In this document: piece by piece, positions 7,207 through 64,000 of the stretch | How positions within the stretch are numbered: position 1 is the stretch's first letter | Layout: every line of letters starts with the position of its first letter | DNA from: an uncultured Nitrospiraceae bacterium | GTDB lineage: Bacteria > Nitrospirota > Thermodesulfovibrionia > Thermodesulfovibrionales > Dissulfurispiraceae | Reading direction: 5' to 3' | Assembly: GCA_963727805.1 (NCBI GenBank) | Contig: CAVSHF010000003.1 | Location: 1,888,001 to 1,952,000, forward strand | Length of the DNA stretch: 64,000 nucleotides | Position numbers and translations under genes: made by a program | The notes under the pieces: generated by a model | The model's database searches: none | The model's input: only the letters and a program-made list of their open reading frames with translations | Told to the model about the DNA's origin: nothing

Positions 7207-8064
7207 ATGAAGGTATATATCGATGGGAAATATTATGAACGCGGTGAGGCTATGATATCGGTATTCGATCATGGCCTGCTTTACGGCGACGGTGTATTTG
7301 AAGGGATACGCATCTATAAAGGGAAGGTCTTCAAGCTTAAGGAGCATATAGAAAGGCTTTATCAGAGTGCAAAGACTATTTTGCTCGACATCCCGATCAG
7401 TCGTGCTGAGATGGAAAATGCGACCATTGAAGCAGTGCATGAAAACGCAAAGGAAGACGGCTACATCCGTCTTGTCGTAACACGCGGAGAAGGCCCTCTC
7501 GGGCTTGATCCGGCCCAGTGTGCAAAGCCGAAGATCATTATCATCGTGGGCGACATTCAGCTCTATGCGCAGGAATATTATGAAAAGGGCATCGCTGTCG
7601 TTACGGCGGCATCCCGCCGCATGCCCGCGGACAGCCTCGACCCAAGGGTAAAATCCCTCAATTATCTGAATAACGTCATGGCCAAAATCGAGGCAAAGCA
7701 GGCAGGATGTCTCGAAGCCGTCTTGCTGAATCACGAAGGTTATGTTACGGAATGTACGGCTGACAATATCTTCATCGTGAAGGATGGGACGCTGCTCACG
7801 CCTGCTGCACACTACGGTGCGCTTGACGGGATCACAAGGATGACGGTGATGAATCTAGCGCCATCCTGCGGCATTGCCTCGCGCGAAACAGCCCTGACTC
7901 GCTACGATCTCTACACCGCCGATGAATGTTTCATGACCGGCACCGGGGCTGAAATCATGCCGGTTACCAAGATAGACGGAAGAGTAGTAGGAAACGGCAA
8001 TCCAGGACCTGCGACAAAAAGGCTTATCGAAGGATTCAAAAAACACATTTCAATGCAAAAATAA
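7207..8064 (+). CDS. ilvE: Branched-chain amino acid aminotransferase
   Basis: DHGLLYGDGVFEGIR, KSLNY, LDGITR and ECFMTGTGAE class IV PLP motifs. Confidence 0.93.
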   Translation: MKVYIDGKYYERGEAMISVFDHGLLYGDGVFEGIRIYKGKVFKLKEHIERLYQSAKTILLDIPISRAEMENATIEAVHENAKEDGYIRLVVTRGEGPLGLDPAQCAKPKIIIIVGDIQLYAQEYYEKGIAVVTAASRRMPADSLDPRVKSLNYLNNVMAKIEAKQAGCLEAVLLNHEGYVTECTADNIFIVKDGTLLTPAAHYGALDGITRMTVMNLAPSCGIASRETALTRYDLYTADECFMTGTGAEIMPVTKIDGRVVGNGNPGPATKRLIEGFKKHISMQK

Positions 8065-56559: not shown

Positions 56560-56904
56560 CTATTTCGTTGCGGGTTCAGCCTTCTTCTCGGCTGCTTCCT
56601 TCTTGTCGCCAGCCTTCTTCTCGGCTGCTTCCTTCTTCTCACCAGCCTTCTTGGCTGCTGCCTTCTTTTCGGCCTTTGCCTTCTTGGCTGCTGCCTTCTT
56701 TTCAGCTGCTGCCTTCTTGTCGGCTGCCTTCTTTTCGGCTGCTGCCTTCTTGTCGGCTGCTGCCTGATCGTCAGCTGCCTTCTTGTCGGTTGCCTTCTGT
56801 TCTACCGTTGGAGCCTTCGTGTCCATAGCCTTGTCGGCTGCGAAAACTGCGGTTACGGAAAGAGCGAACAGCAAACATACCATCAGTGCTATTACTTTCT
56901 TCAT
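56560..56904 (-). CDS. Secreted Lys/Ala-rich low-complexity repeat protein (Asr-like)
   Basis: SD GGAGG; Sec signal ending VFA; (D/E)KKAA(A) repeats. Confidence 0.85.
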   Translation of the reverse strand: MKKVIALMVCLLFALSVTAVFAADKAMDTKAPTVEQKATDKKAADDQAAADKKAAAEKKAADKKAAAEKKAAAKKAKAEKKAAAKKAGEKKEAAEKKAGDKKEAAEKKAEPATK

Positions 56905-57104: not shown

Positions 57105-57437
57105 CTATTTGCCGAGTCGCTTGTTAATCAGGTCCTTTAGAGCGTCTTTTGACTGCCCGCCAACTGTTCGATCTGCTTCTTTGCCATCGAGATAAATAAT
57201 AACCGTGGGCGTGCCGCTAACCTTGCATTGAACGGCAACTGACGTCTGTTCATCACAATTCAGCTTTGCAAATCGCGCCTTACCCGCCATCTCTGCCGCC
57301 ACTTCTTCGTAGATCGGGGAAAATATTTTGCAATGTCCGCACCACGGCGCCCAAAAATAGACGAGCATAATCCCGCCGATCTTCTCCACTTCGGACATCC
57401 ATGTATCGGCCTTTAGTTCAACGATAATATTAGCCAT
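57105..57437 (-). CDS. Thioredoxin
   Basis: FWAPWCGHCK, KLNCDE, GTPT; start at 57437 after SD AGAGGA. Confidence 0.9.
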   Translation of the reverse strand: MANIIVELKADTWMSEVEKIGGIMLVYFWAPWCGHCKIFSPIYEEVAAEMAGKARFAKLNCDEQTSVAVQCKVSGTPTVIIYLDGKEADRTVGGQSKDALKDLINKRLGK

Positions 57438-57671
57438 GGGAACCATCCTCTTTGATAATTATTTATACCTTTTTTCCATTGCCATTGATAACAGAATGCA
57501 GAGTAAAATATATTACACCAAGAAAGAATGCTGCATCAAGCTATTGGGAGTTACAAGTTCAATTGGAGCAGACGACATGCCGCATGTCTATTTAAATTGT
57601 ATGTACCCTTCCTGTTCGCTGTACGGTTTCTTAGGAACAACCGAACTGACACAGTGTGTTATAATTATTTC

Positions 57672-58040
57672 ATGAGGAAGATTATCATAATCCTGCTATT
57701 ATTCCCCACAGTCGCACTGGCGCAACCGACAATAATATTTGACACTGAAACCCATGATTTCGGGATAGTACGGGGTGACGAACCTCTCAAACATACCTTT
57801 GAGGTCTGGAATAAGGGGACAGAAGACCTGATTATTAAGAGGCTTGACGCACCCTGAGGATGTACTGCCGCAATGGCTAGTTCGAGTCAGATCAAACCCG
57901 GAGAAATAGGAAGCATAACTGTAACGGTGAATGTGCAACAGTACATCGGCAAGGTTACAAAGGAGATTGCGGTCTATAGTAATGACCCAGGAAAGCCGCG
58001 GGTGAACCTGCTGCTCAAGGCTGAAATTAGGAGCAATTGA
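57672..58040 (+). CDS. DUF1573 (Ig-like) exported protein with in-frame TGA at codon 62; candidate selenoprotein
   Basis: Signal peptide, HDFG, HTFEVWNKG..LII..LDAP-TGA-GCT, IKPGE.G.I.V, VYSNDP; frame stays open for 60 sense codons after the TGA. Confidence 0.8.
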
Positions 58041-58234: not shown

Positions 58235-58513
58235 CTACCTGATAATCCTGAGCCCCGCTTTATTATCCCCAACCCAGACCACTTTTGCCTCTACAGCGGG
58301 ACGAATAATGTTCACTGTGTTCCCCATACTAAGCCGTGCACTCGTAGCGATGCCAAAGCCGCTTTCGCTCATATCGACTATTTTGCAGCTCCATGTGTTT
58401 CCCCTTAGATCTGCAAATTCCGTCACTACCGCGCAGTCGAGTCTCGGCCGGCGTCTTTTTTCGCAATAAGTGTCCTCCTGTGGCTTCTTGAAAAAACGAT
58501 CCCACACTCCCAT
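58235..58513 (-). CDS. Short PilZ domain protein
   Basis: RRRPR and DMSESG; EAKVVW..AGL. Confidence 0.85.
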   Translation of the reverse strand: MGVWDRFFKKPQEDTYCEKRRRPRLDCAVVTEFADLRGNTWSCKIVDMSESGFGIATSARLSMGNTVNIIRPAVEAKVVWVGDNKAGLRIIR

Positions 58514-59433: not shown

Positions 59434-60801
59434 ATGGCACAAAAAATTGCCTTATTGGTTTTGGGAGACGTTTTGATATCGATCCTGGCGCTTTGTGTCG
59501 TTTTCCAATATATCGCATCCCAATTTGAGAGTGCCAGGGGGATGCCATTTCCAGGAATCCTGGAGAGTATTGTTTTTGTCTCCGTAACACTTTTTTCCTC
59601 ATATTTCCTAGAGCTGTACAGTCGGAAAAAAGTCTTTAGATTTAATTTGAAAGAGATGCCTGCCATTATCCTTCTTGCCATTGCAGTTTCCTTCTTTGTA
59701 TTGACGTCTATTTTCTTTATGTTCCCTTCCATAGCACTCGGACGACGCGCATTGCTCCTGTCCCTAGGCATCTACGGGCTATTGCAGTGCGCATGGCACA
59801 TCTCATATAAATCCTTTCTAAATCTGTCGGGAATGAAGCAAAAGGTCCTTATACTCGGGATTGGCGACCTCGCGAGAAAGATGGAACAGATCATGTTCTT
59901 GCATAAGACACAGTATGCCTTTGCCGGATACTATGACTTGTCATCGCAAATTTTACAGGATAGCACGTCCCCATTAGAGGCCACATGCGGAAGTCTTGTG
60001 GAGACCGCTAAAAGAGAGAAGATAGATAAGCTTGTGGTAGCCGTTACGGAACGAAGGGGAGTATTACCTCTCAAGGAACTCCTGAACTGTAAGTTTGCCG
60101 GTGTTGATATTGTCGATGCGCCATCTTTTTATGAAGAGGTCATGGGTAAAATGCTTCTGGAAAGCATTGCACCGGGCTGGTTCATATTCGCAGATGGGTT
60201 CAAACTGAATCAAACAATAAAATTCTTCAAGCGGCTCTCCGACATCTTTTTGGCCTCTGTCGGCCTCATACTCACTGCCCCTTTGTTTCCACTTGTTGCA
60301 CTGCTGATCAAGATCGATTCTAAAGGTCCTGTCTTTTACCGTCAGTTGCGGGTTGGAGAGGGGGAAATTAATTTTATGCTCATTAAATTCAGAACGATGA
60401 AGCAAAACGCGGAAACGCAAAGCGGTGCTGTCTGGGCCCAAAAGCATGACACGAGGGTAACTAGAATAGGGAGCATCCTCAGAAAGGTGCGCTTGGATGA
60501 ACTTCCGCAGTTTATTAATGTGTTGAAAGGTGAAATGAGTTTCATCGGTCCGCGCCCGGAAAGGCCTGAGTTTGTTGAAAAGCTTCAACGAACGATACCA
60601 TATTACATCCATAGGCATTTCGTTAAACCTGGCATTACCGGTTGGGCCCAAATAAAGTATAGGTATGGCGCCTCCGAGGAGGATTCTCTCGAAAAACTCC
60701 GTTATGATTTATACTATATTAAGAATCTCTCACTGTTGCTGGATACGTCGATCACAATAGATACGATTAAAGTCGTTCTCTTCGGAAAAGGAGCGCGATA
60801 A
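59434..60801 (+). CDS. Priming sugar-phosphate transferase (TIGR03013 PEP-CTERM/XrtA-type)
   Basis: N-terminal TMs; ERRGVLP; KR..DI; KFRTM; RLDELPQF; GPRPERP; KPGITGWAQ. Confidence 0.92.
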   Translation: MAQKIALLVLGDVLISILALCVVFQYIASQFESARGMPFPGILESIVFVSVTLFSSYFLELYSRKKVFRFNLKEMPAIILLAIAVSFFVLTSIFFMFPSIALGRRALLLSLGIYGLLQCAWHISYKSFLNLSGMKQKVLILGIGDLARKMEQIMFLHKTQYAFAGYYDLSSQILQDSTSPLEATCGSLVETAKREKIDKLVVAVTERRGVLPLKELLNCKFAGVDIVDAPSFYEEVMGKMLLESIAPGWFIFADGFKLNQTIKFFKRLSDIFLASVGLILTAPLFPLVALLIKIDSKGPVFYRQLRVGEGEINFMLIKFRTMKQNAETQSGAVWAQKHDTRVTRIGSILRKVRLDELPQFINVLKGEMSFIGPRPERPEFVEKLQRTIPYYIHRHFVKPGITGWAQIKYRYGASEEDSLEKLRYDLYYIKNLSLLLDTSITIDTIKVVLFGKGAR

Positions 60802-60810
60802 GGAGGAAAA

Positions 60811-61641
60811 GTGAAAACACGGCTTTTGTTGACAATGATAATTCTGCTTGGATTGCTTGGCACAGCCTATGGTGAAAGCTATGTGATAGGGCCAGAAGAT
60901 ATGCTTCAGATCAACGTCTGGGGCAATTCTGAATTGAGTGTCAGCATCCCTGTCAGGCCGGACGGCATGATCTCAGTACCCTTGGTTGGCGATGTGAAGG
61001 CAGACGGTCTTACGCCTGACCAGCTTAAGGAGTTTCTGGAGAAGGAGTATATGAAGTTCATCAAGGCCCCTAACGTAAGCGTCGTGGTAACTGCTATAAA
61101 CAGCTTCAAAGTCTATATCGTAGGCGGTGGAATATCAACCGGCGACAAAGGCGGCGGAGTATCATCGGGTATGATAACCCTCCGGAGAAGCACCACACTC
61201 CTGCAGCTCCTAGCCCAGATCGGGTCTCTCCAGGATGCTGATCTGAAAAGTGCCTATCTTTTGAGGGCTGGGAAGAAAATGCCGGTCAACTTTATGAAGC
61301 TGATCGAAAATGGTGATGTAACGCAGGACATCGATCTCAAGCGAGATGATGTCGTTTTCATTCCGCCCGATCTTGAAAACCGCATCAAGGTGGTCGGCGC
61401 AGTAAAGACCCCGGGGATGTTCCATTATATAAAGGGCATGACCGCTCTTGATGCTGTATTGAGCGCCGGAGGGTTCACAGAATTCGCTAGCCAGAATAGT
61501 GTCATAATCATCAGGCAGGAAGGCAGTGAAGTCAAGCATATCGCAGTAAAATTAAAGGACGTCATTAAAGGCGGCGATATGAGTCAGAACGTTCCACTAA
61601 AGCCCGGAGACATGGTAAACGTTAAATCGGGTATATTTTGA
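60811..61641 (+). CDS. Polysaccharide export protein (Wza/SLBB)
   Basis: YVIGPED, VRPDGMISVPLVG, SLBB domains. Confidence 0.9.
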   Translation: MKTRLLLTMIILLGLLGTAYGESYVIGPEDMLQINVWGNSELSVSIPVRPDGMISVPLVGDVKADGLTPDQLKEFLEKEYMKFIKAPNVSVVVTAINSFKVYIVGGGISTGDKGGGVSSGMITLRRSTTLLQLLAQIGSLQDADLKSAYLLRAGKKMPVNFMKLIENGDVTQDIDLKRDDVVFIPPDLENRIKVVGAVKTPGMFHYIKGMTALDAVLSAGGFTEFASQNSVIIIRQEGSEVKHIAVKLKDVIKGGDMSQNVPLKPGDMVNVKSGIF

Positions 61642-61660
61642 TAGATTGTGAGGGGGAGTC

Positions 61661-63232
61661 ATGTCGGAAAGTAGCCTGAATACTTTTGATATAAAGCGTT
61701 ATTGGGGACTCATCTTGCAGCGGAGATATCTGGCCCTATCAGTAGCCTTGACGGTTTTGTCCCTGTGCACGCTGGCCAGTTTTATTTTGCCCAAAGTCTA
61801 TGAAGCGACTTCTACGATTTTTATTCAAAGAAGCACGCTCATCAATCCTCTCATCAAGGGAATTGGGGTTACGAGCAATTCGGAGGAGGGACTCAGGACA
61901 CTTAGGGACAGCATAACCAGCAGAAACATAATCAGCCGAGTGATTGAAAAGCTCAATCTGGACGCAGGTGACGTAAAATCGCAAAAGCACGAAGGGCTTG
62001 TCAGCGCCATAAAGAATAATATTTCGATTACTGTTAAAGGTGGGGGGGGCAGTCAAGGAGCTGATCTCTTCATAATATCGTACCGCGGGTCCGATCCGAA
62101 GAAAGTCAGGGACATCGTTAACACACTTGTGGAAGAGTATATCGCCGAAGCTCTTGGCTACAGAAGGTCCGATGCCTCCGGGGCCTTTGAATTTGTCCAA
62201 AACCAACTTGCTGAGTATAAGACCAAGCTTGAGGAATCAGATAAGGATATCCGGGCATTCAGAGAGAGGAATCCGGACATAGTGCCGCAGACCGAAGGTG
62301 CGGTTCTTACGCGGATGGAGGCCTTTCAGACCCAGAAGATCGATGCGGATATCAAGGTCCAGGAGTTAATGCGCAGGAGGGACAACCTGAAAAAGCAATT
62401 AACTGGAGAGAAGGAACTCACTGTTGCTTTTGTGACCCGTGAGGGATCGCCCGAAGCTCGCCTATCCTATCTGAACAGTCAGCTAGTCCTTCTGACAACC
62501 AAATATACGGACCAGCATCCCGAGATACGTAAAACAAAAGCAGAGATAGAAGAGCTAAAGAAACAGATATCACATGCTAAATCAGCCCCTGCCGATACCG
62601 GGAGTTCTGAAACATCAACCCTCAACCCTATATACCAGCAATTAAAAGAGGACCTTGCGAGAACCGATGCGGAAATTGATTCACTTAAGGCCCGTTCCTC
62701 TGAACTGTTGCACCAACAGCAACAGGCCAAAAGTGTCTTGGGTGGCATGCCGAAGGAACAGGAAGAATGGACTAAGCTTCAAAGGGACAGAACTGTCTAT
62801 CAACATATCTACGACGATTTGCTGAATAAGGTCGAGACTGCTCGTGTCTCCAAAGATCTGGAGTTCACTGACAAGGCCACTACATTCAAAGTCGTCGACC
62901 CCGCAGTGCTGCCCGTTTTTCCTGTCCAGCCCGATAGGATCAAGTTCATACTAGTTGGAATATTTCTGGGTATCGCTGCCGGTGTAGGGACCGTCCTCAG
63001 CATAGATTATCTAAATCATTCCTTTAAGGACGAGGATTCCATCGAAAAGAGTCTCAACTTACCCGTACTCGTGGCAATACCCTCGGTGGTTATTGAAGGG
63101 GATACCATGGCGGTGAGGCAGCTCGATAAAAAGGTGATGATTGCCGCATCCGTATATTTAGGCATTATCCTTTTGCTGCTAGTGAAAGAAGTGTTGTACA
63201 AATATGTTGGCGTCACAATTATCGGTCTTTAG
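61661..63232 (+). CDS. Polysaccharide chain-length determinant (Wzz/Wzc N-terminal)
   Basis: TM - coiled coil - TM; YTDQHP; FKVVDP. Confidence 0.9.
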   Translation: MSESSLNTFDIKRYWGLILQRRYLALSVALTVLSLCTLASFILPKVYEATSTIFIQRSTLINPLIKGIGVTSNSEEGLRTLRDSITSRNIISRVIEKLNLDAGDVKSQKHEGLVSAIKNNISITVKGGGGSQGADLFIISYRGSDPKKVRDIVNTLVEEYIAEALGYRRSDASGAFEFVQNQLAEYKTKLEESDKDIRAFRERNPDIVPQTEGAVLTRMEAFQTQKIDADIKVQELMRRRDNLKKQLTGEKELTVAFVTREGSPEARLSYLNSQLVLLTTKYTDQHPEIRKTKAEIEELKKQISHAKSAPADTGSSETSTLNPIYQQLKEDLARTDAEIDSLKARSSELLHQQQQAKSVLGGMPKEQEEWTKLQRDRTVYQHIYDDLLNKVETARVSKDLEFTDKATTFKVVDPAVLPVFPVQPDRIKFILVGIFLGIAAGVGTVLSIDYLNHSFKDEDSIEKSLNLPVLVAIPSVVIEGDTMAVRQLDKKVMIAASVYLGIILLLLVKEVLYKYVGVTIIGL

Positions 63233-63243
63233 GGAGGCAAGAA

Positions 63244-64000
63244 TTGAGCAGAATCGAAAAGGCTCTGGAAAAAGCAATCCAGATGAGGCAATCAACCAAG
63301 ACTTCTTATCCTGAACGGGAAAATAATGTTGAATTAAAAGGACCATCCTCACTGCCGGAATTTCAAATCAGGGAAATCATGATTGATCCATCCACGGTAG
63401 ATCGGCATGTGGTATGTATTACAGACCCGCATTCTGCCGCCTCCGAACAGTACCGTAAGCTAAGGGCGCGCATACTCGCAGCCACAAAGCAGGATTTTCA
63501 CAATACCATTATGGTGACTAGTGCCGATGTTGGAGAAGGAAAGTCAATAACCTCGATAAATTTTGCCGTTGCCCTAGCACAGGAAATGGATCACACTGTT
63601 CTGCTGGTCGATGCCGATTTAAGGAAACCTTCGATCCATAGATATCTCGGTATAAAAGCGGATCGCGGCTTAAGCGACTATCTATCTGGGAAGGTGGACC
63701 TGTCAGACGTTCTTATACATACAGGGATCGGCAAACTGGTGCTTCTGCCGGCGGGCACGCCATCCCGGAACCCGGCTGAGCTCCTCTCTTCCAATCGTAT
63801 GAAGGACCTTGTGCAGGAGATGAAACACCGTTATAGCGACCGGTATATTATCTTTGATACATCGCCCGTGCTTGTATCAGCCGATGCGATCTCGATGAGC
63901 AGTCATGTCGACGGAGTTCTTTTTGTCATTTATGCGGCAAAGACTCCAGAGCATACAGTTAAAAAGGCGATCGGGCTGCTTCAAAGCGCCACCATTCTGG
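63244..64000 (+). CDS. Polysaccharide biosynthesis tyrosine autokinase (partial, runs off the window)
   Basis: TTG start MSRIEKALEKA after SD GGAGG; EQYRKLR, GEGKS, LLVDADLR, IIFDTSP. Confidence 0.9.
   Translation, partial: MSRIEKALEKAIQMRQSTKTSYPERENNVELKGPSSLPEFQIREIMIDPSTVDRHVVCITDPHSAASEQYRKLRARILAATKQDFHNTIMVTSADVGEGKSITSINFAVALAQEMDHTVLLVDADLRKPSIHRYLGIKADRGLSDYLSGKVDLSDVLIHTGIGKLVLLPAGTPSRNPAELLSSNRMKDLVQEMKHRYSDRYIIFDTSPVLVSADAISMSSHVDGVLFVIYAAKTPEHTVKKAIGLLQSATIL

Follow-up and report, generated by a model that had tools for sequence, protein, structure and literature searches.

The closest described system is a family of predicted selenoproteins defined by the DUF1573 domain. It was first reported in 2007 as OS_HP2 (PMC1976440), was equated with pfam07610 and a UxC motif in 2008 (PMC2398784), and is entered as 'DUF1573 domain-containing protein, pfam07610, UGC' in catalogues of prokaryotic selenoproteins from 2022 and 2026, where the passages on the family class it as 'predicted with high confidence' and not as 'experimentally verified' (PMC9312934, PMC13188914). 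The bacterial SECIS model in the legend to Fig. 2 of one of these has a loop of 3-9 nt with a G within its first two positions, a stem of 4-16 bp, a distance of 16-37 nt from the UGA and an energy of -7.5 kcal/mol or lower (PMC13188914). The original prediction for the gene described here left open whether the family was already catalogued as a selenoprotein; since it is already listed as a predicted selenoprotein family, the present result amends an annotation and is not a discovery.

In the window (the whole 64-kb stretch of DNA analysed), a DUF1573 (PF07610) gene occupies 57672-58040 on the forward strand. Its frame opens with the ATG at 57672, holds a single internal TGA at 57855-57857 (codon 62) and ends with the TGA stop at 58038-58040. 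With the internal TGA read as selenocysteine (Sec), the product is 122 aa long and U-G-C forms residues 62-64. The PF07610 profile matches this read-through product over residues 22-118, spanning the TGA, with 87.6 bits (cut-off 26.1), and the alignment places the TGA, which recurs at this column in relatives and is likely to encode Sec62, at the first Cys of the C-G-C motif. The frame that had been predicted to run through the TGA to 58040, free of other lesions, is thus borne out. Residues 1-17 (57672-57722) form a putative Sec-pathway signal peptide, recognized by eye from a basic start, a hydrophobic core and an A-x-A end; residues 1-20 have low pLDDT in the structure model. All six public proteins matching the query span the N-terminal half only and stop at the TGA position, which indicates that gene callers truncate the window gene. 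The gene is real, its UGA is very likely recoded as Sec, and it belongs to the known DUF1573 selenoprotein family; the public calls therefore need correction here, and probably also for its many relatives.

Upstream of the gene lies an extended -10 box (57655-57665; TG-n-TATAAT at 57657-57665), intact as predicted, whose end is 6 nt from the ATG. A promoter scan omitted this box because the scan also requires a -35 hexamer. No Shine-Dalgarno-like site was found upstream of the ATG at 57672. Among 39 loci whose start codons were chosen by hand, 29 have a TAnnnT motif whose end lies 5-8 nt ahead of the start, with no Shine-Dalgarno-like site, versus 2-7 of 39 for the motif in windows farther upstream; genome-wide, the same placement is seen in about 227 of 2257 long genes. 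From these sequence patterns, a leaderless mRNA is likely for the window gene (57655-57674) and across the gene family. None of the contigs from four of the 22 listed sequencing runs spans the window gene itself. In RNA run X19, one contig, possibly derived from DNA, represents a relative with about 94% likeness across 57655-57905; it crosses the TGA codon with no difference listed there and, because it extends upstream past the -10 box, gives the leaderless start no support.

A thioredoxin gene (WCGHC; 57105-57446, reverse strand) lies divergently from the DUF1573 gene, as had been described. The functional link suggested by this arrangement is not supported, as the thioredoxin gene stands beside the DUF1573 gene in none of the other loci compared for it, in which the flanks of the TGA loci covered only about 1.5 kb. 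In a homologous locus of the same genus (genome G001), a gene for a Lys/Ala-rich protein directly faces the DUF1573 gene with no thioredoxin gene in between. This small, repetitive protein with a putative signal peptide is encoded in the window at 56560-56904 (reverse strand) and in L002:914-1282 and L016:1156-1254, so that it is found near both DUF1573 paralogs of the genome as well as near the G001 homolog. It has a weak match, below the cut-off, to the acid-shock Asr type. A conserved operon can be rejected for the stand-alone DUF1573 genes, whose neighbours differ from one lineage to another (among them uvrA, pcm, fumarase and kdsA) and are mostly unrelated housekeeping genes. In the window, a stand-alone PilZ-domain gene (58235-58513, reverse strand) converges on the DUF1573 gene. 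Beyond it, the region 59434-64000 (forward strand) is, judging from its translations, probably where a locus for exopolysaccharide export begins, with genes presumably for a sugar transferase, an export protein, a chain-length determinant and a tyrosine kinase.

The in-frame TGA is not peculiar to this assembly. A paralog in the same genome (C5:538513) has it at the identical position. A search of 201 genomes of the same class with the family alignment gave 93 matches in 80 of them; by a hand tally of the result table, 79 of these matches contain a TGA. When 40 distinct fetched loci were aligned at this column, TGA was present in 38; of the other two, L021 has its TGA one codon earlier, while the second represents a distant Ig repeat. 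As the genomes of the class are kin, these counts, and those given below for the hairpin, are not independent. Constraint is equal on both sides of the codon, with pN/pS of 0.40 upstream and 0.39 downstream in 15 sequences at least 50% identical (values uncorrected, with pS near saturation). Two refuting conditions named with the original prediction, a TGA confined to this assembly and a genome lacking Sec machinery, did not hold; the window gene has a single in-frame UGA where C-G-C has its first Cys, and relatives keep this column. Outside the class, a search with a Cys pattern returned 78 C-G-C loci across many phyla, a search in which TGA forms could not be counted; each of the 77 distant homologs compared, which were chosen by that same pattern, has Cys at the column.

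Relatives of the gene occur in more elaborate contexts. Among 20 wider regions, chosen for diversity and for their long frames, three loci (L147, L148 and L149) have the TGA-bearing domain fused to SCO1/SenC. A fusion of DUF1573 to a domain that carries two CxxCH motifs, as in c-type cytochromes, at the C-terminal side is present with TGA in L150, L155, L159 and L160, and in Cys form in L158 and L162. A sister subclade has one extra residue after the Sec, mostly giving U-x-x-C, and sits among nosD/F/Y/L, ABC transporter, SCO and redoxin genes. For 11 of the 21 nosZ genes found in the class, a TGA-bearing match follows on that contig and strand, 6-17 kb downstream. In a quick tree of 80 rows, in which 26 of the 77 Cys loci were included and many forks stay open, the nos-linked subclade forms its own branch (support 99) with the window protein outside it; the branch length of the window protein is ordinary. 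A nosZ gene was not found in the genome of the window protein, and a literature search linking selenoproteins with nitrous oxide reductase and nosD returned nothing.

Several further observations were made on these relatives. Loci of the sister subclade in nos clusters are L147:5878-6786, L149:6199-7125 (reverse strand), L148:3776-4726, L146 near 7257-7568, L151:5298-6626 and L152:6510-7058. These members, with U-x-x-C or with U and no Cys, have SCO1/SenC or a carboxypeptidase-regulatory-like domain as fusion partner, and their hairpin keeps the loop AGUUC or GGUUC displaced by one codon. In genome G003, L144:6206-9812 encodes a tandem-domain U-A-C DUF1573 protein with a different hairpin and is clustered with genes for rhodanese and cytochrome c554 and with two fragments of the UGSC family; these fragments may represent another selenoprotein split at a TGA.

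The structure model of the 122-aa product is a beta-sandwich with pLDDT 90.7, and an ASH/PapD-like fold is predicted. In the model, the loop that joins strand 53-59 to strand 64-68 contains U62 and G63, and C64 opens the second strand. The SCO1/SenC and cytochrome c fusions, with the nos, SCO and redoxin surroundings of one subclade, hint at a role in redox chemistry or copper maturation. By analogy with these relatives, the window protein may act as a periplasmic selenol/thiol redox or copper-handling factor in the maturation of metalloproteins, a proposal to which we would give slightly less than even odds. A narrower version, in which Sec-DUF1573 would be a dedicated periplasmic selenol-based copper/thiol factor for metal centres and the sister UxxC subclade would tie NosZ assembly to selenium, is tentative and rather doubtful.

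The most probable alternative accepts the insertion of Sec and takes the protein to be a structural or adhesion-type Ig module, in which the U/C pair would be a stabilizing bond or a metal site without turnover. Its closest folds are non-catalytic ASH/PapD-like domains, and the domain is found repeated in many large surface proteins. A search of proteins represented at 50% identity returned mostly such multi-repeat proteins, and the motif C-[GSA]-C is present in none of 63 long multi-repeat matches versus 82 of 87 shorter ones. In CsgC, a periplasmic protein of Ig fold, the CxC disulfide is reported to raise the melting point strongly (PMC3173608). Two of the TGA homologs, L023 and L152, have no second Cys, so that an Se-S bond is not universal in the family. 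Against a purely structural module, the retention across the class of Sec and of a dedicated hairpin would argue for a reactive site, and the SCO and cytochrome c fusions point the same way. We consider this alternative unlikely, and a reactive selenol is preferred.

Two hairpins downstream of the TGA had been proposed as SECIS elements, and the second of these is conserved. It lies at 57874-57889, with a 5-bp stem that includes one G-U wobble in the window copy and a loop AGUUCG (57879-57884) that begins 21 nt after the UGA; this 6-nt loop, 5-bp stem and 21-nt distance, and the G of the loop, fit the bacterial SECIS model in geometry and loop sequence. Over 37 sequences, 91.9% of cells are paired and two-sided changes occur at four of six pairs, figures that are inflated by the relatedness of the sequences; none of 500 shuffles equalled the percentage paired, and slid controls gave 11-37%. 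At least four of the five stem pairs are kept in 36 of 38 TGA loci versus 1 of 77 Cys loci, the latter drawn from other phyla than the former. In the same peptide, the Ser codon in the loop is AGT in 27 of 27 TGA loci versus 2 of 74 Cys loci. The first hairpin was rejected: it is the minimum-energy fold of the window copy alone, does not surpass shuffles (z 0.27) and is absent from the alignment consensus. A genome-wide hairpin scan was likewise set aside as evidence, being unspecific (1068 of 13063 TGA sites passed).

The energy of the conserved hairpin bears on whether this particular copy is still decoded. Over nt 15-42 after the U, the window copy reaches -3.6 kcal/mol, the weakest of 39 loci, versus -8.0 for the paralog; 33 of the 39 reach -7.5 kcal/mol, although the segment used in the published model may differ. 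A 46-nt segment of the window copy gives -7.7 kcal/mol, but for another fold, and the pairing probability of the conserved stem in the free ensemble is below 0.01, a competing fold being dominant. With the wobble and the -3.6 kcal/mol, readthrough of the window copy may be low. It could be supposed from this that the family uses Sec while the window copy is decaying or poorly read, RF2 (prfB is present) terminating most ribosomes at codon 62 and the C5 paralog supplying the function. Yet all five stem positions pair, the loop is the family consensus, and the sole change is a synonymous G-C to G-U that is also found in another locus; the gene has no other lesion and its branch length is ordinary. 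Decay is accordingly improbable, and there is a high probability that the window copy is still read through.

The genome (3.9 Mb in 5 contigs, 100% complete) encodes the whole Sec machinery. As the original prediction noted, no sel gene lies within the window; profile and tRNA searches of the genome found selA (608 bits), selB (354 bits), two selD genes and one tRNA-Sec (selC) elsewhere. Each of the two selD genes (C3:482960-483883 and C5:157506-158420) has an in-frame TGA with a downstream hairpin. Within the class, selA was detected in 188 of 201 genomes. Five draft genomes (G139, G176, G184, G207 and G208) have a TGA-bearing match and no selA match, for which incomplete assembly may be the reason.

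A variant tRNA or an altered code could instead make the UGA a codon for Cys or Trp. This had been entertained in part, as a UGA-to-Cys recoding, and would agree with the Cys found at the column in every distant homolog compared, themselves chosen by a Cys pattern. Such decoding is very improbable. The sole tRNA with a UCA anticodon is 98 nt long with a long variable arm and is called SeC, which leaves Cys recoding without support; and as TGA terminates 559 of 1629 open frames of at least 300 codons and prfB is present, it is an ordinary stop elsewhere in the genome and a changed genetic code is excluded. The idea that the TGA arose by sequencing error or is a stop that forms a pseudogene, for which the six truncated public matches might be cited, is refuted: the paralog and 38 of the 40 distinct loci have a TGA at this column, downstream constraint is unchanged, and the relative's RNA contig crosses the codon with no difference listed.

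The reading of UGA as Sec is supported by the conservation of the TGA, the full Sec machinery and the covarying hairpin, and it is highly probable that UGA codes for Sec in this family. The gene very likely yields a 122-aa, probably exported, Ig-fold selenoprotein by reading through the TGA. As in established bacterial Sec decoding, SelB would bind the G-U loop 21 nt downstream of the UGA and deliver Sec-tRNA(Sec) in competition with RF2. By comparison with relatives and by analogy, the product would then be exported and cleaved after residue 17, its U-G-C would form a reversible Se-S bond or bind Cu(I), and its clients would be metalloproteins under maturation. For this explanation as a whole, Sec readthrough with a periplasmic redox or copper role in metalloprotein maturation, we estimate a probability of roughly 0.8. 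If the copper-maturation reading is true, DUF1573 would gain a function, and selenium supply would be tied to N2O reduction in genomes with the nos-linked variant, a point that concerns relatives and not the window gene. The stand-alone domain, of 105 residues, is an easy test object.

With the OS_HP2/DUF1573 selenoproteins, as described in the passages cited above, the window protein has in common the Pfam domain, the UGC motif, a single Sec and a downstream SECIS-like hairpin. The window protein represents a different branch: against the narrow model NCBIfam NF041425 (OS_HP2_seleno), which all 14 aligned members match (best E 1.5e-26), it scores 79.6 bits, below the cut-off of 100. The window protein is therefore filed in the DUF1573 selenoprotein family and not under NF041425. 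The catalogue passages on the family make no mention of leaderless mRNA or of a nos-linked UxxC branch, and members from this lineage may appear in the reviews' supplements. In fold, the best match is PDB 2QSV, an uncharacterized tandem-domain protein of Porphyromonas gingivalis (E 1.6e-7, TM 0.76 by query length); its sequence match is weak (E 0.03), the aligned domain lacks a C-G-C motif and the entry names no function. Further likeness in fold is to the ASH/PapD-like domains of HYDIN and VesB. To the redox-active periplasmic Ig folds CsgC and nDsbD, the likeness is by analogy only: CsgC contains no Sec and is neither among the Foldseek matches listed nor among the sequence matches. CsgC is nonetheless described as an exported Ig-like sandwich whose CxC motif lies where a loop meets a strand and for which a potential of -139 mV was measured (PMC3173608); it offers a possible model for how the U-G-C of the window protein could be redox-active.
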